The notes under the pieces were generated by a model. It had not been told where the DNA came from. It worked only from the letters and a program-made list of their open reading frames with translations, and ran no database searches. The position numbers and the translations under genes are program-made. From the NCBI GenBank assembly GCA_017464085.1, contig JAFUEE010000163.1, positions 45-64,044 on the forward strand: 64,000 nt of DNA. The letters are read 5' to 3'. Shown here in pieces: positions 3,641 through 60,008 of this stretch (position 1 is the stretch's first letter; the number at the start of each line of letters is the position of its first letter). The stretch is from Pseudomonadota bacterium (lineage in GTDB: Bacteria > Myxococcota_A > Bradymonadia > UBA4248).

Positions 3641-3678
3641 GTGATCTGTGTGCCCGCAGTCTGGGCATCTGTGGAAAA

Positions 3679-3750
3679 GGCCTATCCTTTCGGATACGGC
3701 CTTTGGCGTGCGTCGCTATCGGCCGGTGGCCGATACGCGCCGCTTTTTTT
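3679..3750 (+). terminator. Two tandem REP-like palindromes; the second ends in T7 and looks like an intrinsic terminator
   Basis: GGCCTATCC-tttc-GGATACGGCC (3679-3701) and CGCTATCGGCC-ggt-GGCCGATACGCG (3714-3739), followed by ccgc and TTTTTTT (3744-3750). Confidence 0.6.
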
Positions 3751-4156
3751 ATCTGTCTGTTATGTTTTCCTGGTGTTTCCTGCGGAAGACAAGTCTGCCA
3801 GGCAGGAAATCGTGGCGCGCGTATCCGCTCGCTTGAGAGAGAAGGATCCGAAGTATATCGTGATGATCAAGATCGAGCAGATTATATTTAAGCATCAGTG
3901 ATGGCAGACAGTCATGCGGCAAAAACTAGTCGTGCCGTGCGCTTTGCATTCTGGCGCAGGGATAGCGTGTCGGCGCGAATGTGAGGGATCGATGCGATTT
4001 TTTTTGATAAAATATGGGGATAACGACAAGATAAGCGTAAGAAAATCATGTAATGTGATATCTCTTGCGCTGGAAGTGTGTGAACTCCTGGCTGTTCTAG
4101 GGGGAAGGCTGATGTTTGGGTCGTATGGCGTACCTGATTAACGGGAGAAAGAGGCT

Positions 4157-6994
4157 GTGAGACGTGGATATATACTGAGTGTGGTGGCAGTGTCGTGGAT
4201 GTGCGGCGCATTTGTGACATCGTGCGGAGACGAGGGCGGGGAAAATAAAAAGGCGGAAGGCTGTGCATCGGGCAGCGTGATGTGCGGGGATGCATGCTGT
4301 GAATTCGAGTGCGTGGAGGGCGCCTGTATCGATGTGAAGACGGATCCTCAGAACTGCGGTTCAGCGGGCACGGTCTGTGACAAGGACGAGTCCTGCGAGT
4401 CCGGGAAATGTGTGAAACAGGGTGTTTCATGCACAGCGCCCTTGGAGCTTTGCGGTTCGGCGTGTGTGGATATGCAGACGGATGCGCTCCACTGCGGCAA
4501 GTGCGATCATGCGTGTCTCGGCAGTGAGTCTTGCGAGGGCGGCGAATGCGTGATCAAGTGCGCGGAAGGCTTGACGCTTCTGAAAGATGGCACATGCGTG
4601 GACCTGATGACGGACGGCGCGCATTGCGGGCGCGAAGGCAATGTATGCGCAGATCAGATGTACTGCAATGCCGGTGTCTGTGAATGCGTGGCAAATCATT
4701 ATGATTGCGATGGCGATCCATCGAATGGCTGCGAGTCAATCTTGATCTGCAAGGCCGGGTGTTCGGAAACGCAGACAGTCTGCGGTGATGCTTGCTGTGA
4801 TGATGGGATGATCTGCTGCGGGGATTCATGTATGGATGCGAGTGATCCGCGTCATTGCGGCGGCTGTGAGACGATATGCAGCCTTTCGCAGCGCTGCGAT
4901 GCCGGTACATGCGTGGACATGCCCGAGGGATTTGCCTGTGAGACGGCAGAAGCGCCGGATCTCTGTTGGGGGGCGTGTGTCGATCTTTCATCCGATGACA
5001 AGAATTGCGGCTCTTGCGGCGATGTCTGCGGCGAAAGCGAGACGTGCAAGGAAGGCGTGTGCCGTTCGAACAAAACTTCGAAATGCGGGGAAGATGAGCT
5101 CGAATGTTATGGCACGTGCCGAGCCGTGCTCGAGGATGACGATAACTGCGGCGCTTGCCTGAATGCCTGTGGCGCGAATGAGAAGTGCGTTCAGGGCAGC
5201 TGCGAGCTTCAGTGCGGCGATCTCATGAGATGCGGTCAGAAATGCGTGGACGCGCAGACAGATGCCAGTCATTGCGGAAACTGCGGGGAGGCCTGCAAGG
5301 CCGGAGAAGCTTGCAGCGGCGGCGTGTGCGGCTGCGCGGAAGGTCATTTTGATTGCGACGGCGATGCGTCGAATGGCTGTGAAGCCACTGAGGCGTGCCC
5401 GTGTTCTCCGGGCGCGGAACAGGCATGCTGGCGCGGTTCTGAGGCCAATATCGATCCGGAAACGAAGAAACCCTATGGCGAATGCCGGTTCGGCACGCAG
5501 AAATGCGATGCGTCAGGCAAGTTCTGGGGGCCTTGCGAGGGCGGTGTCTATCCGTCTGCGATCTCGTGCAATCAGTATGGCGACCTCAACGGCAAGGATA
5601 ATGACTGTGACGGCAAGATCGACACGGAATGCCGTTCGGAATGCGAGCTCAAGGCCGGGGAGATGTCGTATATCGGCTGCGAGTACTGGTCAGTCTATCT
5701 GTACAACCTCGTCACGACGAACCATACGCTCGTGTTCAGCAACCCGAGCGATACGGATACGGCGACGATCTATATTTATGACAAGAAACGCAACGAGAAT
5801 GTTTCCCAGCAGCCGGTTCACACGCTGGAGCTTGCGCCCAAGAAGGTGCTCGTGCAGCAGATGAATACCGGGAGCACGAATATGTGCGTCTCGACGAGCT
5901 ATATCCAGAATGCGTATCGCATCCGCTCGACATCTCCAATCACCGCCTATCAGTTCAACCCGTGGGACAAGGCGACGGCCAATTCGAACGATGCGTCATT
6001 GCTCTTGCCCGCGAATGTTCTCGGGAAAGACTATATCGGCATGACATGGCACAGCGAGAGCGGCGGCGACCATACGTCCTATCTGACGGTGGTGGCGACC
6101 TCTCCGGGCAAGACAAAGGTCAAGATCAAGACGACTGCGAATGTGGTGAAGGGCACGGCGATTGACGCGATGAAACCCGGAGAGGAACGCGAGTTCATGC
6201 TGGACCGTTATGGCGTTCTGACGCTCAACGCGCCCGCCAGTGAATCGGAAGAGCAGACGGGCACGCGAATCACTGCGGACAAGAATATCGCCGTGTTCGG
6301 CGGTTCGCGTTCGTCTTATGTGCCCAATGCGGCCAGTTCCGGGTGTTGCCGCGACCACATCGAGGAACAGCTCTTCCCGCTCCAGGCCTGGGGCAAATCG
6401 TATTATGCAGTTGCGGCGTATTCAAAGGGGAAGGCGGGGGACTTCTGGCGCATCATTGCGCGCGATGACGATACGAAAGTCACGATATCCGGGTCGCCGA
6501 CGATCCAGGACAAGACCTTCACGCTCAAGGCCGGGGAGGCCTATCCTGTGTTTGAGTCGCGCGGCGGCTTTATCGTCAAGGCGGACAAGCCGATCAGCCT
6601 CGGGCAGTTCTTGCCGAGCAAGGGCTATAACAAGCCCACGGACAATATCGGCGACCCGTCCTTTATCCTGACGGTTCCCTATGAGCAGTACCGCGATAAT
6701 TATGCTTTCCAGGTGCCGAATTCCTACAGCCAGAATTATATCACGATCATCTCTCCGGCAGATGCAAAGGTGAGTTTGGACGGAAAGATCTTGCAGGCCT
6801 CGAATTATGTGAACGGGGGCACGGAGAAGATCGGCTCGACGGGATTTGTCTATGGCTATGTCTCTGTGAGCGTGGGCGTGCACAGGGTTGAGGCGGATCA
6901 GCCGGTCGGGGTGTATGGCTATGGGTATCAGAACATCAGCTCTTACGGATATCCTGTGGGTCTTGACCTCAAAGATCTGAACAGTACGAACTGA
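4157..6994 (+). CDS. Giant Cys-rich repeat lipoprotein, paralog A, with a conserved C-terminal roughly 450-aa domain
   Basis: GTG at 4157 after a GAGAAAGAGG RBS; lipobox-like signal (VTSCG). About 10 repeats of D-x2-H-C-G-x-C-x3-C-x2-G/S-E-x-C-x2-G-x-C. The C-terminal region (YIGCEYW ... GYPVGLDLKDLNSTN) is shared with paralog B. Confidence 0.8.
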   Translation: MRRGYILSVVAVSWMCGAFVTSCGDEGGENKKAEGCASGSVMCGDACCEFECVEGACIDVKTDPQNCGSAGTVCDKDESCESGKCVKQGVSCTAPLELCGSACVDMQTDALHCGKCDHACLGSESCEGGECVIKCAEGLTLLKDGTCVDLMTDGAHCGREGNVCADQMYCNAGVCECVANHYDCDGDPSNGCESILICKAGCSETQTVCGDACCDDGMICCGDSCMDASDPRHCGGCETICSLSQRCDAGTCVDMPEGFACETAEAPDLCWGACVDLSSDDKNCGSCGDVCGESETCKEGVCRSNKTSKCGEDELECYGTCRAVLEDDDNCGACLNACGANEKCVQGSCELQCGDLMRCGQKCVDAQTDASHCGNCGEACKAGEACSGGVCGCAEGHFDCDGDASNGCEATEACPCSPGAEQACWRGSEANIDPETKKPYGECRFGTQKCDASGKFWGPCEGGVYPSAISCNQYGDLNGKDNDCDGKIDTECRSECELKAGEMSYIGCEYWSVYLYNLVTTNHTLVFSNPSDTDTATIYIYDKKRNENVSQQPVHTLELAPKKVLVQQMNTGSTNMCVSTSYIQNAYRIRSTSPITAYQFNPWDKATANSNDASLLLPANVLGKDYIGMTWHSESGGDHTSYLTVVATSPGKTKVKIKTTANVVKGTAIDAMKPGEEREFMLDRYGVLTLNAPASESEEQTGTRITADKNIAVFGGSRSSYVPNAASSGCCRDHIEEQLFPLQAWGKSYYAVAAYSKGKAGDFWRIIARDDDTKVTISGSPTIQDKTFTLKAGEAYPVFESRGGFIVKADKPISLGQFLPSKGYNKPTDNIGDPSFILTVPYEQYRDNYAFQVPNSYSQNYITIISPADAKVSLDGKILQASNYVNGGTEKIGSTGFVYGYVSVSVGVHRVEADQPVGVYGYGYQNISSYGYPVGLDLKDLNSTN

Positions 6995-7076
6995 GGTGGG
7001 CATATCTGGGGGATGAAATCAAGGGTTGTATTTGAAAAGAATCGGCAAGTGCCGGTCTGGTTTTAGAGGAGCAAAT

Positions 7077-10000
7077 ATGAACGTGAAGAAACAGGCGCGT
7101 GCTGCTGCCATATTTTTGGCTTCAGCGCTGGCATTCTATGGCTGTAGTGACAGTTCTGGCTCGGCTTCTGGCGGCGGAAGCGGAGATGCGTGCGACAAAG
7201 GCACGAAATGCGGCGATGTATGCTGCGAGGGCGCATGCGAGGGCGATGTGTGCATCGACACGTCTGCAGACCGCGAGAATTGCGGAGAAGTCGGTCATGC
7301 ATGTGAGTCCGGGGAGAAGTGCGAGTCCGGGGAATGTCAGCCGGAAAAAGTCACGTGCGGCACGGATGAGATGACGTGCGACGGCGTATGCGTCAATGTG
7401 AAGAATGATATCAATCACTGCGGCGGTTGCGGCCAGGCTTGCGAGGACAGCGAGGTGTGCGCGAACGGGCAGTGTTCGACGTCTTGCCCGGAGGGATATG
7501 CGCCGCTGAGCACTGGCGGCTGTGCCGATATGAAGACGGACAGCGACCATTGCGGTGCGGAGAACAACCGCTGCGAGACGAATTCGTTCTGCGAGGATGG
7601 CAGATGCGCGTGCACGGATGGCTGGTATGATTGCGACAATGTCAAGTCGAACGGCTGCGAATCGAACCGCACCTGCAATTTTGCTTGCGCGGAAGGGCTC
7701 AAGACTTGCGGGGAGCATTTGTGCTGCCCTGAAGCGGAAACGTGCTGTGGCGAAGGGTGCTGTGCGGTCGGGACGACCTGTTGTGGCGGCGATACGTGCT
7801 ACGACCTGCAGAATGATGCGGAGCATTGCGGCGGGTGTGATATCGGCTGCCGTGCCTCCGAAATCTGTGTGGAGGGGGCCTGCGTCGAGAATACGACGCC
7901 CTGCGAGACTGAAAATGAGATCGCCTGCTGGGGCAAGTGCACGGCCATTCAGAGCGATGTGAACAACTGCGGCGACTGCGGCAATGTCTGTCGCGAAGGC
8001 TGGTCTTGCGATGAAGGCATCTGCACGCTTCATTGCGAGGATCCGAAGACGCTTTGCGGCGATGCCTGCTATGACTTGTCCAATGACTTTTTGCACTGCG
8101 GAAGCTGCGAGACGGTCTGCGGACCGTCTCAGGTCTGCCAGGACAGCGCATGCGTGGAAATCTCCACGGTCATGCCAGACCTTGCGTGCGATCAGGAGAG
8201 CGGGGAGTCGTTATGCTGGGGCAGCTGTTACAAGCTTCAGGAAGACCGCGAGCACTGCGGCGCGTGCGATAACCGCTGCAATGAGGATCAGGATTGCACG
8301 GAAGGCAGCTGTGTCGATCGGATACCGCCCAACCCATACGGATGCGAGAATCAGGAAATTCTCTGTTATGGCAAATGCACCGATGTGTTCAGCGATGACA
8401 AGAACTGCGGGGCTTGCCTGAATGCATGTGGGGCAAATGAGAAATGCAGCCAGGGTATCTGCGAGATCCAGTGCGGGGAGCTGACGCGATGCGGCAGCAA
8501 GTGCGTGGATATACAGAGCGATGCGAAGTTCTGCGGCAGCTGTGAGACGGCCTGTGCCGATGGCCAGGTATGCACGGAGGGCGGCTGCGCCTGCGCGCCT
8601 GGCCGCTATGAGTGCGACAATGTTGCGGAAAATGGCTGCGAGTCGACGGAAGCGTGCAACTGTGTGCCGGGCTCGAAACAGGCATGCTGGCCTGGCTCCC
8701 CTGAGAATCGCCACAAAGGTATCTGCAAGGATGGCGAACAGGTCTGCGATGCATCCGGGCAGTTCTGGGGACCCTGTGTCGGCGGTGTGCTGCCTTCAAA
8801 AGTCACCTGCTCGGATGACGGCGTTCTCAACGGACTGGACAACGACTGCGACGGCAAGGTGGATGACGTGTGCTACACGACCTGCGACAATATCGCCGGC
8901 GAAAATTCCTACATCGGCTGCGAATATTGGCCCGTCTATCTCGAGAATTACTCCCCGTCCACGAAGAATCACGGGATCGTCATCAGCAACCCCAGCGAGA
9001 CGCGCACGGCGACGGTCAAGATTTTCAACCAGGCAGGCCAGAATGCCAAGCCGCCCAAGCCGCTCCATACGCTGAGCGTCAAGCCTGGCGGCCTTGCGTC
9101 CCTCGTCCTCTCCGAGGGCACGACAAACATGGTGATGAACACTGGCATCCAGGCAAAAGCGTATGTCGTCCGCACGAATACGCCGATCACGGTCTATCAG
9201 TTCAATCCCTGGGGCAAGGCATCCGTGTGCTCCAATGACGCATCGCTGCTGCTGCCAAGGAACGTGCTCGGCAAGAAATATCGCGGCATGACCTGGCAGA
9301 GCGAGAAGAGCTCGCTGCAGTCCTACCTGACTGTCGTTGCCGTGGAGCCCGGAAAGACAGCCGTTTCGTTCGACACGCGCTCGACGATCGTCGCAGGCAC
9401 CGGCGTCGCGCAGCTCGTTGCGAATGCGATCGGCAAATATGTCCTCAACCAGTTCGAGGTGCTCAATATGCTCTCGACGACGAATTCCGAGCAGACGGGC
9501 TCGTACATTGAGGCCGATCGCAAGATCGCCGTGTACGGCGGCTCGCAGTGCTCGTTCATTCCCAATAATATTTACGCATGCGACCATCTCGAGGAGCAGC
9601 TCTTCCCGATTCAGGCATGGGGCAAGTCGTATTTTGCAGTCCGCAGCGTCGCGCTCGGTGACAAGGGCGATTTCTGGCGCATCCTCGCGCATGAGGACAA
9701 CACGCAGGTCACTTTGCCCGCGAAGCTCGGCGGGACGATCACGCTTAAAGCCGGACAGTACAAGGAACTCGTCACGACCGATTCCTTCGAGATCGATGCG
9801 AACAAGCCGATCTTGGTCGGCCAGTTCTTCCCCGGCCTCGACTATCATACGAGCAATCCCAAGCACGAAGGCGATCCGGCATTCATCCTCGATGTGCCCT
9901 ATGAGCAGTATCGCTCGGAATATGCATTCATGATTCCCGACAGCTACCGCGACAACTATGTGACGATTATATCGCCAAAGGACAACGTCATCCACTACAC

Positions 10001-10328
10001 AGGGGAGGGCTATTGCAAGAGCGGCTGCAGCAACCTCGATCACTCCAAGCATGTGATGAACCCGTTCAGCAATGTCGATATCAATTCGCTGACGAGCATC
10101 GTCAAGCCGAAGAACGACAACGACGTTTCCTACACGTCTGAGAAATTGTTCACGGGCTTCAAGGAATTCGGCACGAAGGGCTATGTGTATGGCTATCTCA
10201 AGCTTGACGGCGGCACGCACAAGCTTGTCGGCGAGAAACCGTTCGGCGTCATCGGCTATGGGTTTTATGCATACACGTCCTATGGCTATCCGATCGGCCT
10301 CGACCTGAGGGTCCTCAATACCAACTGA
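7077..10328 (+). CDS. Giant Cys-rich repeat lipoprotein, paralog B
   Basis: ATG at 7077 after an AGAGGAG RBS; signal peptide with lipobox AFYGC. About 12 HCGxCG-type Cys repeats. The C-terminal domain aligns block-for-block with paralog A and ends GYPIGLDLRVLNTN. Confidence 0.8.
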   Translation: MNVKKQARAAAIFLASALAFYGCSDSSGSASGGGSGDACDKGTKCGDVCCEGACEGDVCIDTSADRENCGEVGHACESGEKCESGECQPEKVTCGTDEMTCDGVCVNVKNDINHCGGCGQACEDSEVCANGQCSTSCPEGYAPLSTGGCADMKTDSDHCGAENNRCETNSFCEDGRCACTDGWYDCDNVKSNGCESNRTCNFACAEGLKTCGEHLCCPEAETCCGEGCCAVGTTCCGGDTCYDLQNDAEHCGGCDIGCRASEICVEGACVENTTPCETENEIACWGKCTAIQSDVNNCGDCGNVCREGWSCDEGICTLHCEDPKTLCGDACYDLSNDFLHCGSCETVCGPSQVCQDSACVEISTVMPDLACDQESGESLCWGSCYKLQEDREHCGACDNRCNEDQDCTEGSCVDRIPPNPYGCENQEILCYGKCTDVFSDDKNCGACLNACGANEKCSQGICEIQCGELTRCGSKCVDIQSDAKFCGSCETACADGQVCTEGGCACAPGRYECDNVAENGCESTEACNCVPGSKQACWPGSPENRHKGICKDGEQVCDASGQFWGPCVGGVLPSKVTCSDDGVLNGLDNDCDGKVDDVCYTTCDNIAGENSYIGCEYWPVYLENYSPSTKNHGIVISNPSETRTATVKIFNQAGQNAKPPKPLHTLSVKPGGLASLVLSEGTTNMVMNTGIQAKAYVVRTNTPITVYQFNPWGKASVCSNDASLLLPRNVLGKKYRGMTWQSEKSSLQSYLTVVAVEPGKTAVSFDTRSTIVAGTGVAQLVANAIGKYVLNQFEVLNMLSTTNSEQTGSYIEADRKIAVYGGSQCSFIPNNIYACDHLEEQLFPIQAWGKSYFAVRSVALGDKGDFWRILAHEDNTQVTLPAKLGGTITLKAGQYKELVTTDSFEIDANKPILVGQFFPGLDYHTSNPKHEGDPAFILDVPYEQYRSEYAFMIPDSYRDNYVTIISPKDNVIHYTGEGYCKSGCSNLDHSKHVMNPFSNVDINSLTSIVKPKNDNDVSYTSEKLFTGFKEFGTKGYVYGYLKLDGGTHKLVGEKPFGVIGYGFYAYTSYGYPIGLDLRVLNTN

Positions 10329-10821: not shown

Positions 10822-11247
10822 ATGAAGCGAATAACGCGAGTGATCAGCATGATCAGCGGTGCGGTTGCGTCGCTGTTCACTGTGGGATGTATGAAGCCTG
10901 CCGGGGATGTGTACGGTCCGCCCGACAGTTTCGACAGGTATCGTGAGACGGCCGAGAGCGATCAGGAGGCGCCAGGGGCGGAAGGCGAAGGAAAACTTGA
11001 CCGCGAGCCTGCGCCGGAATTTCCCCAGAGCGAGGAGGAGCCCAAGAAGATTTATGGGCCACCGGAGATGCTGGAGGTCATGCCGGAGCCGCAGGTCATG
11101 CCGGATGCGCCTGACAAGCAGGCGTCTGACAGTCAGGAGGCTGAGGATGAAAAGGCTCAGAAGAGGGACTTTGAGACGCTTAAAGAGATTAATAAGTATC
11201 GCAGGGAAGGCAAGAAGGTCTATGGCCCGCCGCCTGCTCGTAAATAA
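10822..11247 (+). CDS. YGPP-motif acidic lipoprotein 1
   Basis: Signal peptide MKRITRVISMISGAVASLFTVGC (lipobox). Contains VYGPPDSF, IYGPPEML and VYGPPPA motifs and a low-complexity acidic linker. Confidence 0.6.
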   Translation: MKRITRVISMISGAVASLFTVGCMKPAGDVYGPPDSFDRYRETAESDQEAPGAEGEGKLDREPAPEFPQSEEEPKKIYGPPEMLEVMPEPQVMPDAPDKQASDSQEAEDEKAQKRDFETLKEINKYRREGKKVYGPPPARK

Positions 11248-11298
11248 ATAATGATATCAGGAATGTCCTGATGACGATCTGTCGAAGGAGAGTGCGAC

Positions 11299-11778
11299 AT
11301 GAAACGGATCACGCGCGTGATCGGTATGATCACTGGGGCGATTTCTTCATTGTTTGTCATAGGGTGTGACAGGCCTGGGGGGAAGATTTATGGTCCGCCC
11401 GATATGCTGGACGAATATCAGAGAACTGGGGAGATCAAATCGGATGCACTGGATCGTGCGTCTGATGTGTCCGACAAGCCTGAAATCGAAGCGCCTCCGT
11501 CGGCGATCTATGGTCCGCCAGAGATGCTGGATGGCGGCTTGGAAAATGCGGATATTCCAGAGTCTGAGGGCGTGCCTGCCGATATCTATGGCCCGCCTGA
11601 GATGTTCGAGGCGCCCGTGGTGGAAACGGAGCCTTCCGGAGCTTCGATGGCTGCGCAAAATAAGGATGAATCCGAGGATGATGCGGATAAAAAGGTTCGA
11701 GACAAGGACTTTGAGACGCTCAAGAAAGTCAATCACAAGCAGGCAAAGAAAACAATCTATGGTCCGCCTAAGCGGTGA
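11299..11778 (+). CDS. YGPP-motif acidic lipoprotein 2 (paralog of the preceding gene)
   Basis: Near-identical signal peptide MKRITRVIGMITGAISSLFVIGC. Four (I/V)YGPP(D/E)ML motifs and a conserved C-terminal 'KDFETLKK' block shared with gene 1. Confidence 0.6.
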   Translation: MKRITRVIGMITGAISSLFVIGCDRPGGKIYGPPDMLDEYQRTGEIKSDALDRASDVSDKPEIEAPPSAIYGPPEMLDGGLENADIPESEGVPADIYGPPEMFEAPVVETEPSGASMAAQNKDESEDDADKKVRDKDFETLKKVNHKQAKKTIYGPPKR

Positions 11779-11960
11779 TGCTGCAGGGTTCATGCGGCCC
11801 ATGGGGCTGGGGGATTGGTACGAGGGCACCGAATATGGTGGCGCGGCGTATTGGCAATGCCAATAGCCGCGCCCGCGACACGTATGCGCCGCAGGCGCAT
11901 AGGGGCGCGTTAAAGACATGATACGGAACGTTTACTGACGCAGGGATATGAGGTGCAGTC

Positions 11961-12620
11961 ATGAAAGGGATAAAGTTTACATATTGCGGCGCAGATGGCG
12001 AAAAACATTCATTTTTATTTGACCGTTCAGTGACGGAAGCATGGATCGGGGCTGGTCCGGAATGCGCGATCTGCGTGTCGGGCAAGTCGGTTCTGGCGCG
12101 TCATGCGAGGCTGTTTTGGCGGAATGGTCATGTCTTTGCAGCCTGTGTGCCGGGATGCGACCGGACGCTTGCGCCCAAAGTCGATGGGATGAGGCTTGAT
12201 GAGGGCGGGGATGAAGTGTTTCTGTGCAGCGAGCTTGTGGTGGGGGACGTGGTGATTTTCGCGTGCGCGATGGAGGAGGGCTCGCAGGCGTCCGAGGCGG
12301 AAGCTCAGCCGCAGCCGGAGCCTCCATGCTGTATTTATGGCCCGCCGTCACGGCTTTCCTGCCCGAAGCCGACTGAAAGAGATGAGGAGGAGAATGCGCG
12401 CGTAATGAAGATGCTGCAGGAGATTCGGGATACGCCGATGGTGACTTATGGCCCGCCTCAGGCATTTGCTGACGCTTGGATAGGTCAGGGCATGAAGCCG
12501 GTGCCTGCGCAGGCGTCCGGGGATGAAGGGCGAGGCAAAAGATCCGGCAGACCCCGCAGAAGGCCTGCGCAGGCGTCCGGGGATGAAGGCGAAGGCCGGT
12601 CGGGAGACGGAAAGAAATAG
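11961..12620 (+). CDS. FHA-domain protein with YGPP motifs
   Basis: No signal peptide. The N-terminal FHA-like region ends in '...KVDGMRL', the same ending as the FHA domain at 21739. Then CCIYGPPSRL and MVTYGPPQAF, followed by a duplicated 'PAQASGDEG.G' block encoded by a 26-bp direct repeat. Confidence 0.5.
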   Translation: MKGIKFTYCGADGEKHSFLFDRSVTEAWIGAGPECAICVSGKSVLARHARLFWRNGHVFAACVPGCDRTLAPKVDGMRLDEGGDEVFLCSELVVGDVVIFACAMEEGSQASEAEAQPQPEPPCCIYGPPSRLSCPKPTERDEEENARVMKMLQEIRDTPMVTYGPPQAFADAWIGQGMKPVPAQASGDEGRGKRSGRPRRRPAQASGDEGEGRSGDGKK

Positions 12621-15531: not shown

Positions 15532-16233
15532 TTAAAGTTCCTGGCAGGTGCAGAGCCCGTCGGTGCAGATGGCCAGTGCGCCTGGTTTGAATTTGTCGCA
15601 GATTTTGCTGCATCTGGCGGCTGCGTCGTCGCCGGTGCATGCGAGCGTTTCGCGGCTGAGGCACTGGCACTTGTCGTTCTGGCAGACGGACATGACGGCG
15701 CCGATGGCCTGGCATGAGACTTCGCAGTCTGCGTCGGACTTGCAGTCGTTCGACTGGCATTCGCATGTGTTATTTTGGCAGATTGCAGTCGAGTTTGGCC
15801 GATAGATGTCGCAGATTGCGGCGCAGGCGGAGGAGATGCCTGAGCCTTCGCAGGAGAGTTCGGATGCCTGAATGCAGCTGCAGATGCCGTCGTTGCAAGC
15901 GGTCATGGCAGCATCCGGGCATTTGGCATCGCAGTCGGTATTTGCTGAACACTCGCGTGCCTGGCATTCGCAATAGCCTTCTGCGCAGACGCCCTTTGTT
16001 TCGGGCTGGTATGTGGCGCAGATCGTGTCGCATTTGTCTTCTGCGGTGCCGGTGCATGCGAGCGCGTCTTTCGAGATGCATTTGCAGGCATTGTCCTGGC
16101 AGTCGAACATGATGGTATTGAGATCGTAAGCGCGGCAGAAGACCTCGCAGTCTGCTTTGGCTTTGCAGAGGCTGTTGTCGTCACAGGCGGTCAGGAGAAG
16201 AAGGGGGATGAGGGGCAGCAGAAGTTTTTTCAT
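15532..16233 (-). CDS. Secreted Cys-rich lipoprotein with four roughly 57-aa modules
   Basis: Signal peptide MKKLLLPLIPLLLLTAC (lipobox). Four repeats of the pattern C-x-A/S-x-DC-EV/x-C-x...-C-x-N/D-x-C-x-C, about 35 Cys in 233 aa. Confidence 0.7.
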   Translation of the reverse strand: MKKLLLPLIPLLLLTACDDNSLCKAKADCEVFCRAYDLNTIMFDCQDNACKCISKDALACTGTAEDKCDTICATYQPETKGVCAEGYCECQARECSANTDCDAKCPDAAMTACNDGICSCIQASELSCEGSGISSACAAICDIYRPNSTAICQNNTCECQSNDCKSDADCEVSCQAIGAVMSVCQNDKCQCLSRETLACTGDDAAARCSKICDKFKPGALAICTDGLCTCQEL

Positions 16234-49787: not shown

Positions 49788-50002
49788 GTGGTTATTAATA
49801 TAATTAATATTAATATTAATAATATTAATTAAGTGTGTCCAGAGGCGTTGATAAATCGTTTTGTATGTAAAAAAAACAGTAGAGTTACTGTTGATTTATG
49901 CAATTTAATATACTATATACTTTATTGATGGTTCTCATCGCTAGATATTGATGTCAGTTGAGTGATGAGATTATCTCTTACTTTTATAAGGAGAGAAAAA
50001 AT

Positions 50003-50416
50003 ATGATTTTCGATGGTTACAAAATAAAAATTGGTGAGGTGGTAATCGGTAAAAAGGTCGTGCCAATATTTGTTAAAGGCGGTGAACATAACCCACCACA
50101 TGTTCATGTCGATGTGGACAAGAAATTTGGACTTGTCGAGATTAAGAATGGTAATTTGTACAGAGGGAATCTAACGCCTAAACAATTGGATGTCGTATCT
50201 GGTTGGCCTAAGAAGAATAGGAAGAAAGCAAAAGAAGTTTGGAATTCGATAAATCCGTCGCTACGACTTGATTCCTTGTCGCGAATGATTAGCACACTTG
50301 AATATCAGATGGCGCATGTCAAACGATTAAGGCAGAGTGGGGGAAGAACACAATTAGTTAAAGCGATGTGTCAGTTGGCTCGTACATTGAATATGGTTAC
50401 AAAATTAGGAGGCTGA
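50003..50416 (+). CDS. DUF4160-family protein
   Basis: 'GEHNPPHVHV' is the DUF4160 hallmark. ATG 50003 after an AAGGAGAG RBS. Low-GC codon usage. Confidence 0.6.
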   Translation: MIFDGYKIKIGEVVIGKKVVPIFVKGGEHNPPHVHVDVDKKFGLVEIKNGNLYRGNLTPKQLDVVSGWPKKNRKKAKEVWNSINPSLRLDSLSRMISTLEYQMAHVKRLRQSGGRTQLVKAMCQLARTLNMVTKLGG

Positions 50417-50417
50417 T

Positions 50418-50798
50418 ATGGGCAAAATCATATATGCACCCAAAAGAGAGGGGAAAGAACGTAAAATTTGGCTTAAATCATTTGCGCAATACAAAGAATG
50501 GAAAGAATGTGTGGACTATCATCACAACATTGTTTCCGTGGAAGTCATTGAGCCGTTAGTTCTTCGCGTGACGTTTGATGATGGCAAAGTAACCAGATAT
50601 CATGTCATCGATACAGCTAGAAAATCTGGTGGGTACATACCGGATAACATTGAGATACTGAGTGAAGACCCGGAGCTGTTTAACAGTATGAAAGTTACAT
50701 GCTGGGACGTTGACTGGACGGAAGATATTGGTCTTGGCTGTGAGGAGTTGTATCACAGTGGCGAAGAACTCGTGCCGCCCAGGGCGAAAAATCATTGA
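50418..50798 (+). CDS. DUF2442-like protein (partner of DUF4160)
   Basis: Starts 1 nt after the upstream stop, with an AGGAGG RBS. The core 'VSVEVIEPLVLRVTFDDGKVTRYHV' fits the DUF2442 beta-rich pattern. It carries a roughly 30-aa N-terminal extension. Confidence 0.55.
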   Translation: MGKIIYAPKREGKERKIWLKSFAQYKEWKECVDYHHNIVSVEVIEPLVLRVTFDDGKVTRYHVIDTARKSGGYIPDNIEILSEDPELFNSMKVTCWDVDWTEDIGLGCEELYHSGEELVPPRAKNH

Positions 50799-50844
50799 TG
50801 GCGTTTGTTATTATGTGATAAAATTAAAAAGCTGTCTGGTAGTT

Positions 50845-50876
50845 GGCGTATTGCTTTGCAATACGCCGCGTTTTTT
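50845..50876 (+). terminator. Fully symmetric REP-like palindrome followed by T6 (terminator of the DUF4160/DUF2442 pair)
   Basis: GGCGTATTGC-ttt-GCAATACGCC, then gcg and TTTTTT. Confidence 0.65.
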
Positions 50877-50926
50877 CGGTGATAGCCTAAACTTATGGCT
50901 AGGTGATTTTAGGAGTGAGCAAATTC

Positions 50927-53884
50927 ATGAATAAGAGTGGCAAACGAGTATTAGTCTTGGCGTTGTGTGCTGGAATCATCGGGTTTTCTGGCTGTGCCAA
51001 AAAAAGTGGCGATTTGAATGTACAGGATCCTGCAAATGAGGCGAACGCTGCTGGACAGGAGGCTGTTGCTTCAGGAAAGCTGAGTGATACCGATGGAAAG
51101 CCTTGCACATCTCACAAGATGTGTTCGCCTGGTTCTGCCTGTGTTCAGGATAAATGCGTGAGGATTGATGCAATTTCGTGTAAAACGAATCTCGACTGTC
51201 CGGAATTTGATAAGTGTAGCAATGGGCATTGCGTGGGATGTGTATCCGATAACGATTGTACAAAAGATTTTACATGCAACAGTCATGAGGTATGTGTGCC
51301 GAAACATTTTGGTGTTCCGCTTTGCAGTTCATCTATGGATTGTAACAATGGCGAAGTCTGTCGCGATGGCATGTGTCAGGCTTTTTGTACGAGTTCTTGG
51401 GGGGATTGCGAAGATGGCGCTACATGCATATCCGAGAATAATATGCTTATCGGGGTGTGTCTCAATCAGAATATCATAAGCCATAGCTCAATGTGTGGTG
51501 CTGAGGATTGTGAATATCAATGCGGTGAGGGGAAATTCTTATCAAATGGGGTTTGTTATCCTGAAAATTGCAGATCAGATTCTGATTGTGATGAAGAAAA
51601 ATATTGTGCAGATAACACCTGCAAGAAAAAAGAGTGTGAATCTGATGATGACTGTAGCGAAGGTGTTTGTCGGCATTTTGTCTGTGGATGCAATACGAAT
51701 GCTGACTGTTCTGAAGAACAATATTGTGATAAGGGAAAATGTCAGGACTATCAGTGTGAAACCGATGACGACTGTTCGTTCTATGATATGGTATGCCATG
51801 ACCGAAAGTGTGTAGGTTGTCGGAGTGATAATGACTGTGAAGAAGGCAAACACTGCAGGGAAATATATTCGTATTCATCAAGAAGCTGTGGGAATCACGG
51901 CTGTAAGTTTGGTGGAAAGTCAGAAAAGCCAGACAGTGTGAAATGTGTGGAATGTAAGGAAGATAAGGATTGTCCGAGTGAACGGTCACATTGTGATTTA
52001 ATGGAAAATGTCTGTGTTGCATGTATGACGGATAGTGATTGTCAGGAGGGATATGAATGCGAGATAGATCATACATGCGTTAAAGATGAGAATGCACAGC
52101 CTCGTAAACAGGAGCAGACATGTTCGGTCAATGCAGATTGCGGAGAAGGAAATTATTGCTCGTATGAGCAAAAATGTAGCCCGATGGCGAAAAAATGCGC
52201 TTCAGATAGCGATTGCGAGGATGGTGTGTCCTGTAATCGACATGGTTATTGCAGTGCAAAACCGATCAAATTTTGGGGATTTCCGTTGCCCGAAATATGT
52301 TCGACAGATGAGCATTGCGGGCGTATGGGCGGATCTGTGTGCACAGCGCGCTTGAGAAAGGTCTATGATCCTGTGAAAGGTGAAAACATAAACGGACACG
52401 CCTGTGGCTATGTATGTACCAAGTCAGCGGATTGTGAAAAGGGCGAAACTTGTATATTTGGGGAATGCGCTTTAGATTATGAGCGTCATTTCTGTGATGC
52501 AACATCGGACTGTCCGAGCGGATATGAATGCAATACATTCTATCATGAATGCATTACGCCCAAGAAGGTCGATGAGACAATGGATATGGAAAAAGCCATG
52601 AGTCTCATGAATGATATGAAGAAGTATTTCCATGTGGCGAAGACACCTGTTGAATGTATGCAAAACAGTGAGTGCAAGGATGGTTTGGTCTGTTTGGCCG
52701 ATGGTAGTTGTGGATGTACAACAAATGAACAATGTCCAGATGGCAATATGTGCAATGCACAATTATCATGTGAATGTATTTCTGACAACGGTTGTCATCC
52801 CGGTTTTACCTGTGTGGAAAAGAAGTCAAGCAGTATGAGTTCGAGTCGGGTATGTGTTTGTGGTAGTGATGACGTATGCGGCGAAAATAAGATTTGTAAT
52901 ATGGAGGGCGTATGTGTTGACAGCAACGACGTGCGTGAAACGTATGCACGAGCCTTGGATTATCATTATGGCTATGTCCATGTTGCCGATCTTAAGAAAG
53001 CGGTTGAATACTATCAGAAATCTGAATCGCTTGGAAATTCATTTGCAACCATACAGTTGGCTCTGATTGATTTTGAAAAAACCAAGGATGCTAAAAAGTG
53101 GAATGATAAAGTTAAGAGTGCACTTGATACTATTAATGCGCAAGAAAATTCATCTGACACTTCTTCGGATGATCCAATCACATCGTTATTCAAATCTTTG
53201 TTGAGAAACAAGAGCCATATTAATTATTTGAAAGCCATGCTCATGATATATGGTATTGGGGTAAATAAGGATGTGAACAAGGGTATCCAGACGCTGACGG
53301 AGGCTTCGGAGCATTATTCTGTATTTGCCAGAGCTGAACTTGTCGATTTATATGTTTCGGGGAATTTCGTTCCTAAGAATCTGGAAAAGGCGAAGAAAAT
53401 TCTCGAAGATTCTCAGGGTAATTATGTTAATCCAGAATCAGGATATGGCTACTACAGAATTGCCAAAATACTTGCTAAAACGCCCAAACTTATGGGGGAT
53501 AAAGCGTCTGAAAAGTTCGTGGAATACTTGGCTCAAGCTTCATCCATGGGTCTTCTTGAAGCAAAATATCAGATTTCTGCATTTTATGGCGTAAATGATT
53601 TGAGACGTTGGGATCTTGATCGGGATGCCGATAGCAAAAAACTATTAGAATATGCTAAAAAAATGGGACACCCCGAAGCCGCAAAGCGACTTGAAATCGT
53701 GAAGACTTTTAGCGTCGAGGATGGCGATAGCGATGCATCTAAAGACGTGCTTTTGAAAGAGGCAAAACAAGGGAATGCGGTTGCCTGCTATTTACTACAG
53801 AAAAAATATAAAGACAGTAAATGTGCTCAGGCGCTTTCAAAACAGGGGTTGCTTGTCGGTGATTATCTTATGATGCTGAAATAG
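50927..53884 (+). CDS. Secreted Cys-rich repeat protein with C-terminal Sel1/TPR-like repeats (low-GC gene)
   Basis: ATG 50927 after an AGGAGTGAG RBS; signal and lipobox (FSGC). About 20 modules of C-x-SD-x-DC-x5-C-x4-C-x-C. C-terminal Sel1-like units (…GYVHVADLKKAVEYYQKSESLGN…, …IYGIGVNKDVNKGIQTLTEASEH…). Confidence 0.75.
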   Translation: MNKSGKRVLVLALCAGIIGFSGCAKKSGDLNVQDPANEANAAGQEAVASGKLSDTDGKPCTSHKMCSPGSACVQDKCVRIDAISCKTNLDCPEFDKCSNGHCVGCVSDNDCTKDFTCNSHEVCVPKHFGVPLCSSSMDCNNGEVCRDGMCQAFCTSSWGDCEDGATCISENNMLIGVCLNQNIISHSSMCGAEDCEYQCGEGKFLSNGVCYPENCRSDSDCDEEKYCADNTCKKKECESDDDCSEGVCRHFVCGCNTNADCSEEQYCDKGKCQDYQCETDDDCSFYDMVCHDRKCVGCRSDNDCEEGKHCREIYSYSSRSCGNHGCKFGGKSEKPDSVKCVECKEDKDCPSERSHCDLMENVCVACMTDSDCQEGYECEIDHTCVKDENAQPRKQEQTCSVNADCGEGNYCSYEQKCSPMAKKCASDSDCEDGVSCNRHGYCSAKPIKFWGFPLPEICSTDEHCGRMGGSVCTARLRKVYDPVKGENINGHACGYVCTKSADCEKGETCIFGECALDYERHFCDATSDCPSGYECNTFYHECITPKKVDETMDMEKAMSLMNDMKKYFHVAKTPVECMQNSECKDGLVCLADGSCGCTTNEQCPDGNMCNAQLSCECISDNGCHPGFTCVEKKSSSMSSSRVCVCGSDDVCGENKICNMEGVCVDSNDVRETYARALDYHYGYVHVADLKKAVEYYQKSESLGNSFATIQLALIDFEKTKDAKKWNDKVKSALDTINAQENSSDTSSDDPITSLFKSLLRNKSHINYLKAMLMIYGIGVNKDVNKGIQTLTEASEHYSVFARAELVDLYVSGNFVPKNLEKAKKILEDSQGNYVNPESGYGYYRIAKILAKTPKLMGDKASEKFVEYLAQASSMGLLEAKYQISAFYGVNDLRRWDLDRDADSKKLLEYAKKMGHPEAAKRLEIVKTFSVEDGDSDASKDVLLKEAKQGNAVACYLLQKKYKDSKCAQALSKQGLLVGDYLMMLK

Positions 53885-53897
53885 GCTAGTAAGCACA

Positions 53898-53947
53898 TGC
53901 ATTGAGGTTTTTCTGGCTTTGGTTGTATAGAACAGGAAACCTCAATG
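53898..53947. terminator. Long-stem hairpin between convergent genes (candidate bidirectional terminator)
   Basis: GCATTGAGGTTT ... AAACCTCAATGC, a 12-bp perfect stem with a 26-nt loop. Confidence 0.45.
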
Positions 53948-54040
53948 CTATGTGTATTGTTTGCAAAAATGGCAAGCGCGTGGTTGCGTAATACCTGTTG
54001 TCATCTTTAGAATAAGTTTCTGGTTGATATCGAGCATCCG

Positions 54041-55150
54041 TTAATTTGTAATCTGTATTTCCTCGCGATAGGGCGACCACCAAGGTTCGGTATTCTTGGG
54101 CGCATTTAAGTCAATGATATCTCCAATGACTGGCGTTAAGAGATGATACGGCTTTTCTTTAGACGCAAGATATATATTTTCGAGGGGATCATACCAGTTG
54201 TGGTTGGAAAGTGTGAATTTTGCGTGGTGATAGGTCATGACATATTGGGGAGCTAATATATCTATCGCTTTGACGAGACCATCGGGCAGCAGATGTATCT
54301 GATTCCAGGATTGGTTATATTGTCCATTCTCCATGATGGCGAAATCGATAGATTTGAATTGCTCGCTAATTTTTTGGAAATGATCTCCAAAACCTGTGTC
54401 GCCAGATATATATATATTTCTTGGGCCGGCAATCATAAAGGATGCCCAGAGCGTCGGATTGCCCGACAGACGCCCGGAAAAATGGCGCGCTTCGAGCGCA
54501 TAGAGTTTTGTATCTTTGTCGATATCGATAGATTCGCCCCAGTCAAGCTCGTGTATTTTTTCTAATGGATAGCCCCAATACTCAAAGTGCTGGCCGACGC
54601 CAAGGCCGCATACGACATGCTTGACGCGGTCTTTGAGTTCGAGAACGGTCTTGTAGTCGAGATGATCCCAATGGTCATGCGTGATGATGAGATAATCGAT
54701 GTCGGGAATGTCCTCGGCGGTGTAAATTTCAGTGCCCTTGTATGGCTTGAGAGAAAAATTGATCGGAAATCTGTAGTTAAAGACTGGGTCTATCAGATAT
54801 CGGATGCCGTCTTGTTGTATTAATACCGAGGAATGACCGAACCAGATGACGAGATCTCTGTCGCGCTCGAGAGTTTTGAGGTCTGTTTTGATGGCTGGCA
54901 GCGGCTTTGAGGGGGCTTTTTCGACGCGGCCGGTTGGAGGTTCACGCATTTGAGATGAATCGCCTGATGTAAACATCTTGGAGGGCGGATCATTCTGAAA
55001 AGCGCCATCCTTATAATTCGGTGATTGCTGAATGCGCGCAAGGCGCTTCCCTTTGGGACGTTGGCCGAGCTCTTTCCACATGAGGATGCCGATAATCGTG
55101 AGGAAAAGGACGATGAGGAGGAGCAGGGCGAGGAGTATTTTTTTGATCAT
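54041..55150 (-). CDS. Membrane-anchored MBL-fold metallo-hydrolase
   Basis: N-terminal TM helix (ILLALLLLIVLFLTIIGILMW) and the HxHxDH motif 'ITHDHWDHLD'. Confidence 0.75.
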   Translation of the reverse strand: MIKKILLALLLLIVLFLTIIGILMWKELGQRPKGKRLARIQQSPNYKDGAFQNDPPSKMFTSGDSSQMREPPTGRVEKAPSKPLPAIKTDLKTLERDRDLVIWFGHSSVLIQQDGIRYLIDPVFNYRFPINFSLKPYKGTEIYTAEDIPDIDYLIITHDHWDHLDYKTVLELKDRVKHVVCGLGVGQHFEYWGYPLEKIHELDWGESIDIDKDTKLYALEARHFSGRLSGNPTLWASFMIAGPRNIYISGDTGFGDHFQKISEQFKSIDFAIMENGQYNQSWNQIHLLPDGLVKAIDILAPQYVMTYHHAKFTLSNHNWYDPLENIYLASKEKPYHLLTPVIGDIIDLNAPKNTEPWWSPYREEIQITN

Positions 55151-55420
55151 TGATGCTTTTTTGAAAGGATTTTGTTGAGGTATTGAGGATGGCTGTGTTC
55201 AACGTCTGTGGATATGAAATGCAAGGCAGTAGGCAATAGAAGGTAGGCAGTAGTGCGCATGATAACGGCTATAGTTTTTATGCAGAGTACAGTCGTTGCT
55301 CGATTGCGACAATACATGGCTATTTTATCCACTCTTGTTGAACAGAGCCTTGAAGATTCTAGGCGGTAGTGCGTGTAATTGAGGACTGAATGCGAATAGG
55401 TGCTTGGAGGTTATGATTTG

Positions 55421-56860: not shown

Positions 56861-57125
56861 AGTTTTTAGGCAGTATGCAATAGGCAGCAATAGCCGCGTA
56901 AAGGTGTGTTGAGGTATTGAGGCGTTTAAGGCAGTGGTGAGCGTGATGGATGTGTTTGCAAGGGTCTGATGATTTCCTTGGCGCATTTTGCGCCGCCCTT
57001 TCCTTTGGAAGGGATTTGGGTTCGCTTGTGCGCGACTGGCTTATAGCTGTGTGCACGGAAGAGCGTCAATCATTTTGCCAGATTGAGGTGTGGTGATGAA
57101 ATTTGGTACATAGTGTAAAAAAAAG

Positions 57126-57154
57126 TTGACAATTGAATTTGATTGTCATATGGA
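57126..57154 (+). promoter_or_regulatory. Predicted sigma70-type promoter with an overlapping 7-bp inverted repeat, upstream of the S8 protease gene
   Basis: TTGACA (57126-57131), then a 17-nt spacer, then TATGGA. The inverted repeat TGACAAT...ATTGTCA (57127-57133 / 57142-57148) spans the spacer and could be an operator. Confidence 0.35.
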
Positions 57155-57211
57155 TGGAGATAGGTATTGAGCCATCAATGATGGCTAAGGTGTGTAAGAC
57201 AAGGAGGATGT

Positions 57212-59155: not shown

Positions 59156-59170
59156 TTATAGGAGGCGATT

Positions 59171-59656
59171 ATGAAAAAATTAGTATCACTGCTGGCGATC
59201 ACGTTAGGTTTGGGACTGACGGCATGCGGTTCGGACGGCGCAAATGGTGTAGATAACGGTACTAAAGCCAACAAAGCGCAGGCAATAACTTCGGATGTTA
59301 TCACTTGTTATAATGTTGAAGATAATTGCCCTGCTGGGTATGCTTGCATCAATCATATTTGCGTGCAAGTCGATTTTGATCCTTTGCCAGAACAGCCAAA
59401 ACCGGTACCAGAAGATGAAGATCGCATTCGCTGCGATGAGTTTTCGTGCGAATGTGATGAGACCACATGTAACAATAAAGATTCATGTTGGCAGGTTGCC
59501 AATTACCAACCCAATATGATTTGTGTGGATGACGGACGAATTATAGATGCCGTTTGTGAGGGAAAAGCTTGGACCTGTGGCACCGGTGGCGAGTGTGATG
59601 TCAGCAAGTGCCATAGTGGAGAAGTCTGCAAAGACGGCAAGTGCGTAGAAGAGTAA
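59171..59656 (+). CDS. Small Cys-rich lipoprotein
   Basis: Signal and lipobox LGLTACGS; 18 Cys in the mature part (CYNVEDNCPAGYACINHICV...). Confidence 0.55.
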   Translation: MKKLVSLLAITLGLGLTACGSDGANGVDNGTKANKAQAITSDVITCYNVEDNCPAGYACINHICVQVDFDPLPEQPKPVPEDEDRIRCDEFSCECDETTCNNKDSCWQVANYQPNMICVDDGRIIDAVCEGKAWTCGTGGECDVSKCHSGEVCKDGKCVEE

Positions 59657-59787
59657 TAATGTCGGCTGGCCAGATTGCCAGCCGACAGCGAAGCTTTGCT
59701 TTCTTGTTTTGATTTTGTATCTGTGAGGATTTGCCTTTTGTGATTTGCTTGCGCGTATGTTCATCATAGCTGCGTGCATAGAGAGAG

Positions 59788-59852
59788 GCGCCGGCGTATC
59801 GCGGAAGCGATAGGCGGCGCGAATCGGCGCGCGTATTGTTCAATAGCGCGCC
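59788..59852. repeat. Pair of REP-like palindromes (inverted orientation) at the low-GC/high-GC boundary
   Basis: GCGCCGGCGTATCGC-gga-AGCGATAGGCGGCGC (59788-59820) and GGCGCGCGTATTG-ttc-AATAGCGCGCC (59826-59852). Confidence 0.65.
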
Positions 59853-59987: not shown

Positions 59988-60008
59988 AGCGATGGCTATA
60001 TATAATTA

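Follow-up and report, generated by a model that had tools for sequence, protein, structure and literature searches.

The closest known relatives of the two proteins considered here belong to Pfam family PF17517 (IgGFc_binding, also called FCGBP_N). Its bacterial members, known as "IgGFc-binding proteins," are typically ~640 to 720 amino acids long in Myxococcota and Bradymonadales, and the same Pfam family includes the N-terminal (N1) domain of human FCGBP, with PSI-BLAST E values between human and bacterial FCGBP_N of down to 1e-90 (Lang et al. 2016, PMC4948705). In that work, bacterial FCGBP_N was found to co-occur with the cell surface domains PKD, SprB, and CHU_C, the proteins were judged likely to be secreted, and 103 FCGBP_N proteins were counted in one myxobacterium. 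Neither native FCGBP nor a human construct that included the N-terminal domain was found to bind IgG (PMC8267560), and hence IgG Fc binding is an unreliable property of the family; the role of human N1 is itself stated to be unclear (PMC11796319). For the proteins described below, "IgGFc-binding" is a family name that says nothing about function. A second set of relatives, the MXAN_6577-like (NF041328) and Stig1 (PF04885) families, shares with them a Cys module of 33 amino acids. In plants, STIG1 is a small secreted peptide that acts in pollen-tube signaling. Literature searches found no paper mentioning MXAN_6577 and no functional study of PF17517, MXAN_6577, or bacterial IgGFc-binding lipoproteins.

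The window, i.e., the whole 64,000-nucleotide stretch of DNA that was analyzed, comes from an uncultured member of the Myxococcota with a probable relationship to Bradymonadia and contains two adjacent genes on the same strand, here referred to as A and B (ORFs 4157-6994 and 7026/7077-10328), in which these two kinds of sequence are joined. Gene A starts with a GTG codon preceded by GGGAGAAAGAGG. The gene B ORF could open at 7026; starting at the ATG at 7077, with the ribosome binding site AGAGGAG, the product has 1,083 amino acids, which corrects the 1,084 given in a first-pass annotation of the locus. The products are identical to GenBank MBQ9244095.1 (IJ165_12915) and MBQ9244096.1 (IJ165_12920), respectively, both of which are labeled "hypothetical protein." The features of the pair are as follows.

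4157..6994, + strand: gene A, 945-aa predicted lipoprotein (ORF; ribosome binding site and GTG start; exact GenBank match; Pfam and NCBIfam matches)
4157..4225, + strand: A predicted signal peptide and lipobox, residues 1-23, VTS-C23 (read from the sequence; Cys23 invariant in family alignments)
4316..5329, + strand: A stalk, 7 modules, residues 54-85, 99-131, 144-175, 221-252, 270-302, 317-349, and 359-391 (module HMM; NF041328; PF04885; AF2)
4679..4735, + strand: A first cap, "C-x-C..DCDGDxSNGCE," residues 175-193 (DNA/protein repeat families D2 and D4)
5327..5383, + strand: A second cap copy, residues 391-409 (repeat families D2 and D4; nearly invariant columns)
5384..5644, + strand: A Cys-rich linker with "DNDCDGKID," residues 410-496 (conserved alignment columns)
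5645..6991, + strand: A C-terminal domain, predicted all-beta, residues 497-945 (PF17517; AF2; orthologue comparison)
7077..10328, + strand: gene B, 1,083-aa predicted lipoprotein (ORF; ribosome binding site AGAGGAG and ATG; GenBank match; Pfam and NCBIfam matches)
7077..7145, + strand: B predicted signal peptide and lipobox, residues 1-23, FYG-C23 (read from the sequence; aligned to the invariant Cys)
7242..8588, + strand: B stalk, 9 canonical Cys modules, residues 56-504 (module HMM; NF041328; PF04885)
8589..8891, + strand: B second cap and "DNDCDGKVD" linker, residues 505-605 (BLASTP collinearity with A; repeat families D2 and D4)
8892..10325, + strand: B C-terminal PF17517-containing domain, residues 606-1083 (PF17517; BLASTP; orthologue comparison)

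Both proteins are predicted lipoproteins with a type II signal peptide and a lipidatable Cys23, as had been proposed. The N termini, MRRGYILSVVAVSWMCGAFVTS-C23 in A and MNVKKQARAAAIFLASALAFYG-C23 in B, each combine a basic n-region, a hydrophobic h-region, and a lipobox of the form [LVI..][ASTVI..][GAS]-C, the features by which signal peptidase II substrates were recognized, and Cys23 is unchanged throughout the family alignments (31 and 35 members). A and B would be located at the outer membrane or the cell surface.

The proteins contain 83 (A) and 104 (B) cysteines, nearly all of them N-terminal to the last ~450 amino acids. By an HMM made from the modules, A has 7 canonical copies and B has 9 (i-E values of 1e-9 to 1e-16), each following the pattern C-x3-C-x-D-x3-D-x3-C-G-x-C-x3-C-x5-C-x2-G-x-C. 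The repeated module described by the first-pass annotation is thus present in both proteins, but its count of 10 to 12 is reached only by adding two "CxC..DCDxDxxNGCE" caps per protein plus degenerate Cys clusters. In the second cap, columns C393, C400, D401, N406, G407, C408, and E409 are nearly invariant in the family. NF041328 (MXAN_6577-like cysteine-rich protein; curated cutoff of 100 bits) matched A with 225.3 bits in 5 stretches and B with 215.5 bits in 4 stretches, and PF04885 (gathering threshold of 24.1 bits) matched A with 72.2 bits in 7 stretches and B with 92.2 bits in 6 stretches. The repeat is therefore of the myxobacterial type, as suspected, but the guess of TIGR02232 found no support: NF041328 was the only NCBIfam match at E values of ≤0.1, on the assumption that the TIGR model is included in the NCBIfam library scanned. 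Among the Pfam matches of A and B at E values of ≤0.1, there was no EGF or laminin-type model. TIGR02232 and EGF/laminin modules are likewise small disulfide-rich repeats of secreted proteins, and the AF2 model of A shows EGF-like paired beta-hairpins; however, the Cys spacing and the D-x2-x-C-G-x-C signature set the A/B module apart. In the full-length AF2 model, each module of A is predicted as paired short beta-hairpins with a pLDDT of 70 to 83, and the overall pTM is 0.58, a combination that fits beads on a string. The linker of A, whose pLDDT is low when modeled without the stalk, reaches 71 to 91 in the full-length model. A sequence search of the PDB with the stalk found nothing.

The shared, Cys-poor C-terminal domain of ~450 amino acids proved to be collinear and homologous between the two proteins, with 49% identity, and BLASTP aligned A and B end to end (41% identity; E = 0). 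Both are members of PF17517 (297 model positions; gathering threshold of 25.6 bits). In A, the match spans residues 612-923 (5990-6925) and model positions 1-297 of 297 (235.3 bits; E = 1.2e-69). In B, the best stretch covers model positions 1-243 (223.6 bits; E = 4.4e-66) and is interrupted by a B-specific insertion of ~50 amino acids near 9996-10150, which appears as a gap in A in the BLASTP alignment and after which the C-terminal motifs resume. The bacterial PF17517 proteins share with A and B the same ~450-aa core, including the preceding "DNDCDG" segment, which also lies N-terminally in the consensus of the ~650-aa family members; identity is 33 to 40% over 96 to 100% of the domain, and the common motifs are YIGCEYW, PITAYQFNP, SNDASLLLP, DHxEEQxFP, GDPxF, and SYGYPxGLDL. 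Unlike the usual PF17517 proteins, A and B carry an additional N-terminal stalk of 400 to 500 amino acids built of Stig1/MXAN_6577-type modules. In human FCGBP, the domain stands at the N terminus of a VWD-C8-TIL mucus protein, whereas in A and B it stands at the C terminus of a predicted lipoprotein. As the curated models NF041328, PF04885, and PF17517 cover both parts of the proteins, the earlier portrayal of them as novel is largely moot.

AF2 predicts an all-beta fold for the C-terminal domain of A (pLDDT mostly above 85; pTM of 0.83), apparently built of three to four beta-sandwich units that carry conserved polar motifs. Invariant or near-invariant polar residues (SNDAS, (C)C-x-D-H-x-E-E-Q, G-D-P, and R) recur at equivalent places in these units; B retains only one Cys of the CC pair, which is otherwise well conserved. 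An internal triplication was considered and rejected: hhalign backed units 2 and 3 only (probability of 85%; E = 7e-6), and the other pairs were weak. Sequence and profile searches of the PDB with the C-terminal domain or the A2 profile returned nothing meaningful and detected no solved structure of FCGBP_N. The sole high-probability Foldseek match was the small protein TM1070, in a local alignment of ~100 to 130 columns; the other neighbors, all with a TM score of <0.2 and low probability, were beta-sandwich parts of GH2, GH101, and an alpha-1,6-glucosyltransferase and cupin/jelly-roll proteins.

PF17517 is a widespread family, with 14,325 cluster representatives (at 50% identity) in our search and more than 500 loci in Myxococcota genomes. 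The combination of a Stig1 stalk with FCGBP_N was found in about 35 of the clusters returned, and for the few relatives whose habitat could be traced, the samples were from animal guts. Other Myxococcota proteins of the NF041328/Stig1 type have the same stalk, but their distal domains differ from that of A and B and include choice-of-anchor L, RCC1, NHL/SMP-30, and fibrinogen-like domains. In a scan of a genome collection, the window's own species was not among the matches listed, the best of which was 36% identical. Among 80 distant loci compared for conserved neighbors, 15 have a gene for an IPT/TIG domain protein as the direct upstream neighbor of the PF17517 gene; there is no such gene within this window, and hence the pattern has no functional leverage here. 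A 968/971-aa gene upstream of family genes in two loci (L004 and L005) was tried as a third paralogue and discarded (no PF17517, no module, and a BLASTP E value of 0.01). The window does contain three further Cys-rich ORFs with a lipobox, as had been noted (15532-16233, 50927-53884, and 59171-59656, with 15.8%, 9.5%, and 10.5% Cys, respectively). Their grouping with the pair did not hold, as none carries the module at an E value of <1e-3; searches for module and C-terminal domain led to their rejection as relatives, the ORF at 59171 being marginal (E = 0.0016). Two of the three lie in a low-GC island.

The first-pass annotation had described A and B as a recently duplicated, diverging adhesin locus with ongoing expansion and contraction of its repeats. 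They are indeed tandem paralogues, and the difference between 7 and 9 modules, together with a range of 5 to 12 modules across the whole family, would be in keeping with such a model. However, A and B are only 41% identical and their synonymous sites are saturated (dS of 1.4 to 2.4), the same pair in the same order is found in at least three other MAGs, and A-type and B-type proteins form separate clades in a distance tree; on these grounds, a recent duplication is rejected. Another Bradymonadia MAG has two adjacent family genes. The closest A-type proteins, P0001 and P0002 (81 to 86% identical to A), have 7 modules each, and B-type orthologues retain 9. Modules within one protein are only 21 to 59% identical to each other, and no DNA repeat in the pair exceeds 80% identity over 30 nucleotides. 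The number of modules changes across the family, but slowly. Strong purifying selection also speaks against a fast-diverging locus: dN/dS against A and B orthologues is 0.03 to 0.10, and the C-terminal domain is the most constrained part (91% identity and dN/dS of 0.065 for A; 96% and 0.03 for B). We therefore give the model of a young, fast-changing locus hardly any credence. By sequence comparison, A and B are old, independently conserved, constrained paralogues, and a domain that is nearly unchanged within each paralogue, yet only 49% identical between them, suggests that each has a stable ligand of its own or that the two address different faces of one partner.

On balance, we favor, with some reserve, the view that A and B are two anciently duplicated envelope lipoproteins, probably displayed on the surface, that bind macromolecules via FCGBP_N with paralogue-specific ligands. 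After lipidation and Lol-type sorting, both would be tethered to the outer membrane. The disulfide-knotted modules, broken by the two "DCD..NGCE" caps, would form a rigid but jointed stalk, followed by the Cys-rich "DNDCDG" linker and an all-beta head of ~450 amino acids containing FCGBP_N. The stalk may hold this domain off the membrane and, most probably, expose it at the cell surface, where the head could bind a glycan, a matrix or mucus polymer, or the surface of another cell. An adhesin or receptor role, as first proposed, is plausible.

Binding rather than catalysis is suggested by the absence of any enzyme family match for A and B in Pfam, NCBIfam, or PADLOC, by the swapping of the stalk among many distal domains, and by the surface association reported by Lang et al. 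(PMC4948705); the PADLOC anti-phage defense models did not match A or B either. It is nevertheless conceivable, although unlikely, that FCGBP_N is a polysaccharide or peptidoglycan hydrolase or lyase, or a metal-dependent enzyme, that the stalk positions in the envelope or on the surface. Polar residues that are invariant or nearly so at equivalent places in the beta-sandwich units, the very low dN/dS of the domain, and the glycoside hydrolase parts and cupin/jelly-roll proteins among the Foldseek neighbors point in this direction, but those fold matches are all poor, the one high-probability match is local and to TM1070, no catalytic family was matched in Pfam or NCBIfam, and B lacks one Cys of the CC pair. 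Equally doubtful is a role as periplasm-facing structural or tethering lipoproteins that span the periplasm or organize the envelope, with no part in surface binding. Many Gram-negative lipoproteins do face the periplasm, where disulfide-rich modules would be oxidized, and no dedicated surface export partner gene was seen beside the pair; however, a stalk of 7 to 9 modules with a ~450-aa head, judged from the full-length AF2 model, would be long for a periplasmic protein, and FCGBP_N proteins elsewhere were judged likely to be secreted and tied to cell surface domains (PMC4948705).

Lang et al. (PMC4948705) also speculated on a link between FCGBP_N and gliding motility, in which A and B would be a component or an adhesin. 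The domain is enriched in Bacteroidota and Myxococcota, both of them gliding lineages, and is found together with SprB-type domains. On two related MAG contigs, the gene immediately upstream encodes a large, Cys-rich protein that has Ca-binding TSP3-like repeats or gives a weak VWA match. This upstream gene is absent from the window, though, no motility genes were recognized beside the pair, in the window or in the closest relative, and the published correlation is taxonomic, without a functional link, so that we regard a gliding role as quite improbable. A long shot among the binding roles is that the FCGBP_N head on its disulfide stalk engages host mucus, by binding a ligand shared with host FCGBP or as its mimic or competitor, with the paralogues targeting two mucus or microbial ligands.

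In summary, the locus is real and a fairly ordinary surface protein locus that encodes no new kind of protein. What had looked like giant Cys-repeat lipoproteins of a novel kind combine two domains that are already cataloged. The finding is of modest importance, and in evolutionary terms it replaces the picture of a recent, dynamic duplication with that of an old pair under constraint. The "stalk plus FCGBP_N" architecture is restricted to a lineage and is kept there as a conserved two-gene pair. Residues 497-945 of A and 606-1083 of B offer well-behaved, strongly conserved constructs for probing what FCGBP_N binds or does and, should the mucus reading be true, the pair would make the function of the FCGBP N1 domain accessible through a tractable bacterial system.

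Region 4157-10328 contains two long ORFs on the same strand, here referred to as A and B.

Gene A, 4157-6994, plus strand: 945 aa, GTG start seven bases past GGGAGAAAGAGG
Gene B, 7077-10328, plus strand: 1083 aa, best start an ATG at 7077, with AGAGGAG ahead of it

The products are exact matches to GenBank entries MBQ9244095.1 and MBQ9244096.1 (IJ165_12915 and IJ165_12920), both labeled "hypothetical protein"; the contig that carries them is 87 kb long and belongs to "MAG: Proteobacteria bacterium." Each product begins with a basic and hydrophobic signal peptide whose end is a lipobox, VTS-C23 for A and FYG-C23 for B, and the lipobox cysteine is invariant in family alignments of 31 and 35 members. 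A and B align from end to end with 41% identity (E = 0). The view taken in the first-pass annotation that these are paralogous tandem lipoproteins is upheld, with lipidation predicted from the lipobox.

The cysteines lie mostly in the N-terminal half, with 77 of 83 located within residues 24 to 496 of A and 97 of 104 within residues 24 to 605 of B. By an HMM built from the repeat, significant modules of 33 aa number 7 in A and 9 in B (i-E values of 1e-9 to 1e-16), and the 10 to 12 modules counted previously are reached only when the two "C-x-C..DCDxDxxNGCE" caps found in each protein and degenerate cysteine clusters are included. These stalk repeats match Pfam PF04885 (Stig1) and NCBIfam NF041328 ("MXAN_6577-like cysteine-rich protein"; 225 bits for A and 215 bits for B, with a cutoff of 100 bits), while no match to the TIGR02232, EGF, or laminin models was reported for either protein in the Pfam and NCBIfam scans. 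The module is widespread in Myxococcota, where it is joined to many different distal domains. In A and B, a cysteine-rich linker with a "DNDCDGKxD" motif sits ahead of a cysteine-poor C-terminal region of ~450 aa.

Identification of this C-terminal region, or head, as Pfam PF17517 (IgGFc_binding, also named FCGBP_N) is near certain, as is the identification of the stalk repeats; the head has scores of 235 bits for A, covering the full model from position 1 to 297, and 224 bits for B, against a cutoff of 25.6 bits. A framing of the pair as novel is in part moot, since modules and head both belong to families that are already catalogued. A profile of the C-terminal core retrieved 14,325 representatives (50%-identity clusters) at an E value of ≤1e-3 and 4,676 at ≤1e-30, and the species-representative genomes yielded at least 517 confirmed PF17517-type loci, almost entirely from Myxococcota, with cultured Sorangium among the sources. 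The commonest bacterial form is ~640 to 720 aa long and is named "IgGFc-binding protein" by PGAP. FCGBP_N was defined by Lang et al. in 2016, who reported 564 such proteins from bacteria (Labilithrix luteola by itself has 103) and raised, as speculation, a tie to gliding (PMC4948705). The IgG binding behind the family name could not be reproduced, either for native FCGBP or for a human construct that included the N-terminal domain (PMC8267560), and the role of the N1 domain in FCGBP has been described as unclear (PMC11796319).

Several features of individual heads are of note. A vicinal Cys-Cys pair, perhaps disulfide bonded or serving as a metal site, directly precedes an invariant D-H-x-E-E-Q motif in A (residues 730 to 738; window 6344-6370); the pair is ≥90% conserved in the wider family, and B has A-C at the equivalent position near 9580. 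B carries a specific insertion of ~50 aa in the last beta-sandwich of the domain (residues ~974 to 1024; window ~9996-10150), which holds two cysteines (981 and 985) and breaks up the Pfam match; B-type orthologues are similar to B in overall length. Multiple FCGBP_N-type stretches are also found in giant proteins among the representatives retrieved with the C-terminal profile, namely, P0364 (2,768 aa) and P0265 (7,017 aa), the latter with 18 stretches matching the C-terminal profile.

An AF2 model of the linker and C-terminal region, with 56 sequences as the input, gave a pTM of 0.83 and pLDDT values mostly above 85 and consisted of several all-beta sandwich units, of which only units 2 and 3 were supported as homologous by hhalign (probability of 85%; E = 7e-6). 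In the full-length model, every cysteine module was predicted as paired short beta-hairpins (pLDDT of 70 to 83), and the overall pTM of 0.58 is consistent with a jointed stalk. A Foldseek search of the PDB returned no analogue of the whole domain (TM < 0.2), the sole high-probability match being local, to the small beta-sandwich TM1070 (probability of 0.98 to 0.99), and searching the PDB by sequence or by profile gave no match.

The first-pass annotation described a recently duplicated pair with ongoing expansion and contraction of the repeats. Although its description of the feature is mostly correct, including the homology of the C-terminal domains (49% identity between A and B), these two proposals are not supported by the comparisons. 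dS between A and B is saturated (1.4 to 2.4), the two genes occur in the same order in the closest relatives (GCA_017555665.1, with 949 and 1,078 aa, and MAGs II180 and II767), and A-type and B-type proteins form separate clades in a distance tree. Two neighboring family genes (1,107 and 936 aa) also occur in a Bradymonadia MAG that is more distantly related. Module counts range from 5 to 12 across the family but are constant among close orthologues, at 7 in A, P0001, and P0002 and 9 in B, P0016, and the gene at L001, the locus of the closest relative. Furthermore, the modules of one protein are only 21 to 59% identical to one another and correspond by position between paralogues (A6 and B8, for example, at 75%), and there is no DNA repeat with >80% identity over 30 nt. 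Between the window and L001, identity is 72% (A) and 71% (B) in the stalk and 91% (A) and 96% (B) in the C-terminal domain, with dN/dS values of 0.03 to 0.10. Taken together, the saturated dS, stable counts, diverged modules, and low dN/dS indicate that the duplication is old, as are the repeats, and that both are under purifying selection.

On either side of the pair, synteny is shared with the closest relative, with a 384-aa gene upstream and small "(I/V)YGPP" lipoproteins and an FHA-like protein downstream, but these flanking genes gave no informative family match. The downstream genes are three consecutive small ORFs (141, 159, and 219 aa; window 10822-12620), all with repeated "(I/V)YGPP" and with homologues at the equivalent place in L001 and in another locus, L002; the first two have lipoboxes and the third a weak FHA-like N-terminus, the only Pfam or NCBIfam match among them. 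Upstream of A lies a 516-nt noncoding gap (3641-4156), whereas L001 has a CDF cation-efflux gene and a 64- to 77-aa ORF in its place (8536-9903), a difference that reflects a recent gain or loss.

An IPT/TIG-domain protein of ~716 aa is encoded directly upstream of the PF17517 gene at 15 of 80 distant Myxococcota loci (L066, 2644-4794, and 14 others among L007 to L086), and the two may form a conserved gene pair; this gene is absent upstream of A and B. In two related MAG contigs, the gene for a cysteine-rich protein of ~970 aa with EB-module matches (L004, 6839-9751; L005, 6936-9839) immediately precedes the gene or genes for FCGBP_N lipoproteins, one copy having a TSP3-like Ca-binding repeat match and the other a weak VWA match. 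It falls outside the A/B family and is missing from the window.

The three other cysteine-rich ORFs previously noted in the window are likewise predicted lipoproteins but have neither the stalk module nor the C-terminal domain. Two of them lie within a low-GC island at about 49.9 to 60 kb.

49958-50798: two small ORFs
50903-53884: cysteine-rich lipoprotein of ~985 aa, C-terminal part with weak Sel1-type matches
57212-59155: subtilase S8
59171-59656: cysteine-rich lipoprotein of 161 aa

This island (49900-60000) has a GC content of 0.42 to 0.48, versus 0.55 to 0.59 elsewhere, and a GC3 of 0.26 to 0.44, versus ~0.65 to 0.75, and was probably acquired horizontally. From 1 to 64000, no 2-kb block departs from a positive GC skew, despite genes on both strands, and the cumulative skew rises steadily to +5.6.

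A and B combine a lipobox, a disulfide-rich modular stalk, and a conserved all-beta globular FCGBP_N head in an old paralogue pair under strong constraint. Both are likely to be tethered to the outer membrane by lipid and to hold the head away from this membrane, probably at the surface, where the head would bind a macromolecular ligand. Judging from heads that are 91 to 96% conserved within a paralogue and only 49% alike between paralogues, A and B would have different specificities, each of them stable. We consider this display-and-bind model moderately probable. One main alternative is that the head is an enzyme, in favor of which are the invariant SNDAS, DHxEEQ, and GDP motifs; the others are a structural role in the periplasm and a gliding-associated adhesin.

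The combination of stalk and FCGBP_N head has a narrow distribution. About 35 clusters among the matches listed have it, with sources, where given, named as "Proteobacteria bacterium" or "Bradymonadia bacterium" MAGs, and a genome scan added one MAG named "Myxococcales bacterium UBA4248" and another, with an SGB label, named "Myxococcota bacterium"; UBA4248 has been recorded as a genus among pig-feces MAGs (PMC8772591). In summary, A and B are a real feature, already public as hypothetical proteins, in which known families are joined in a lineage-restricted architecture.
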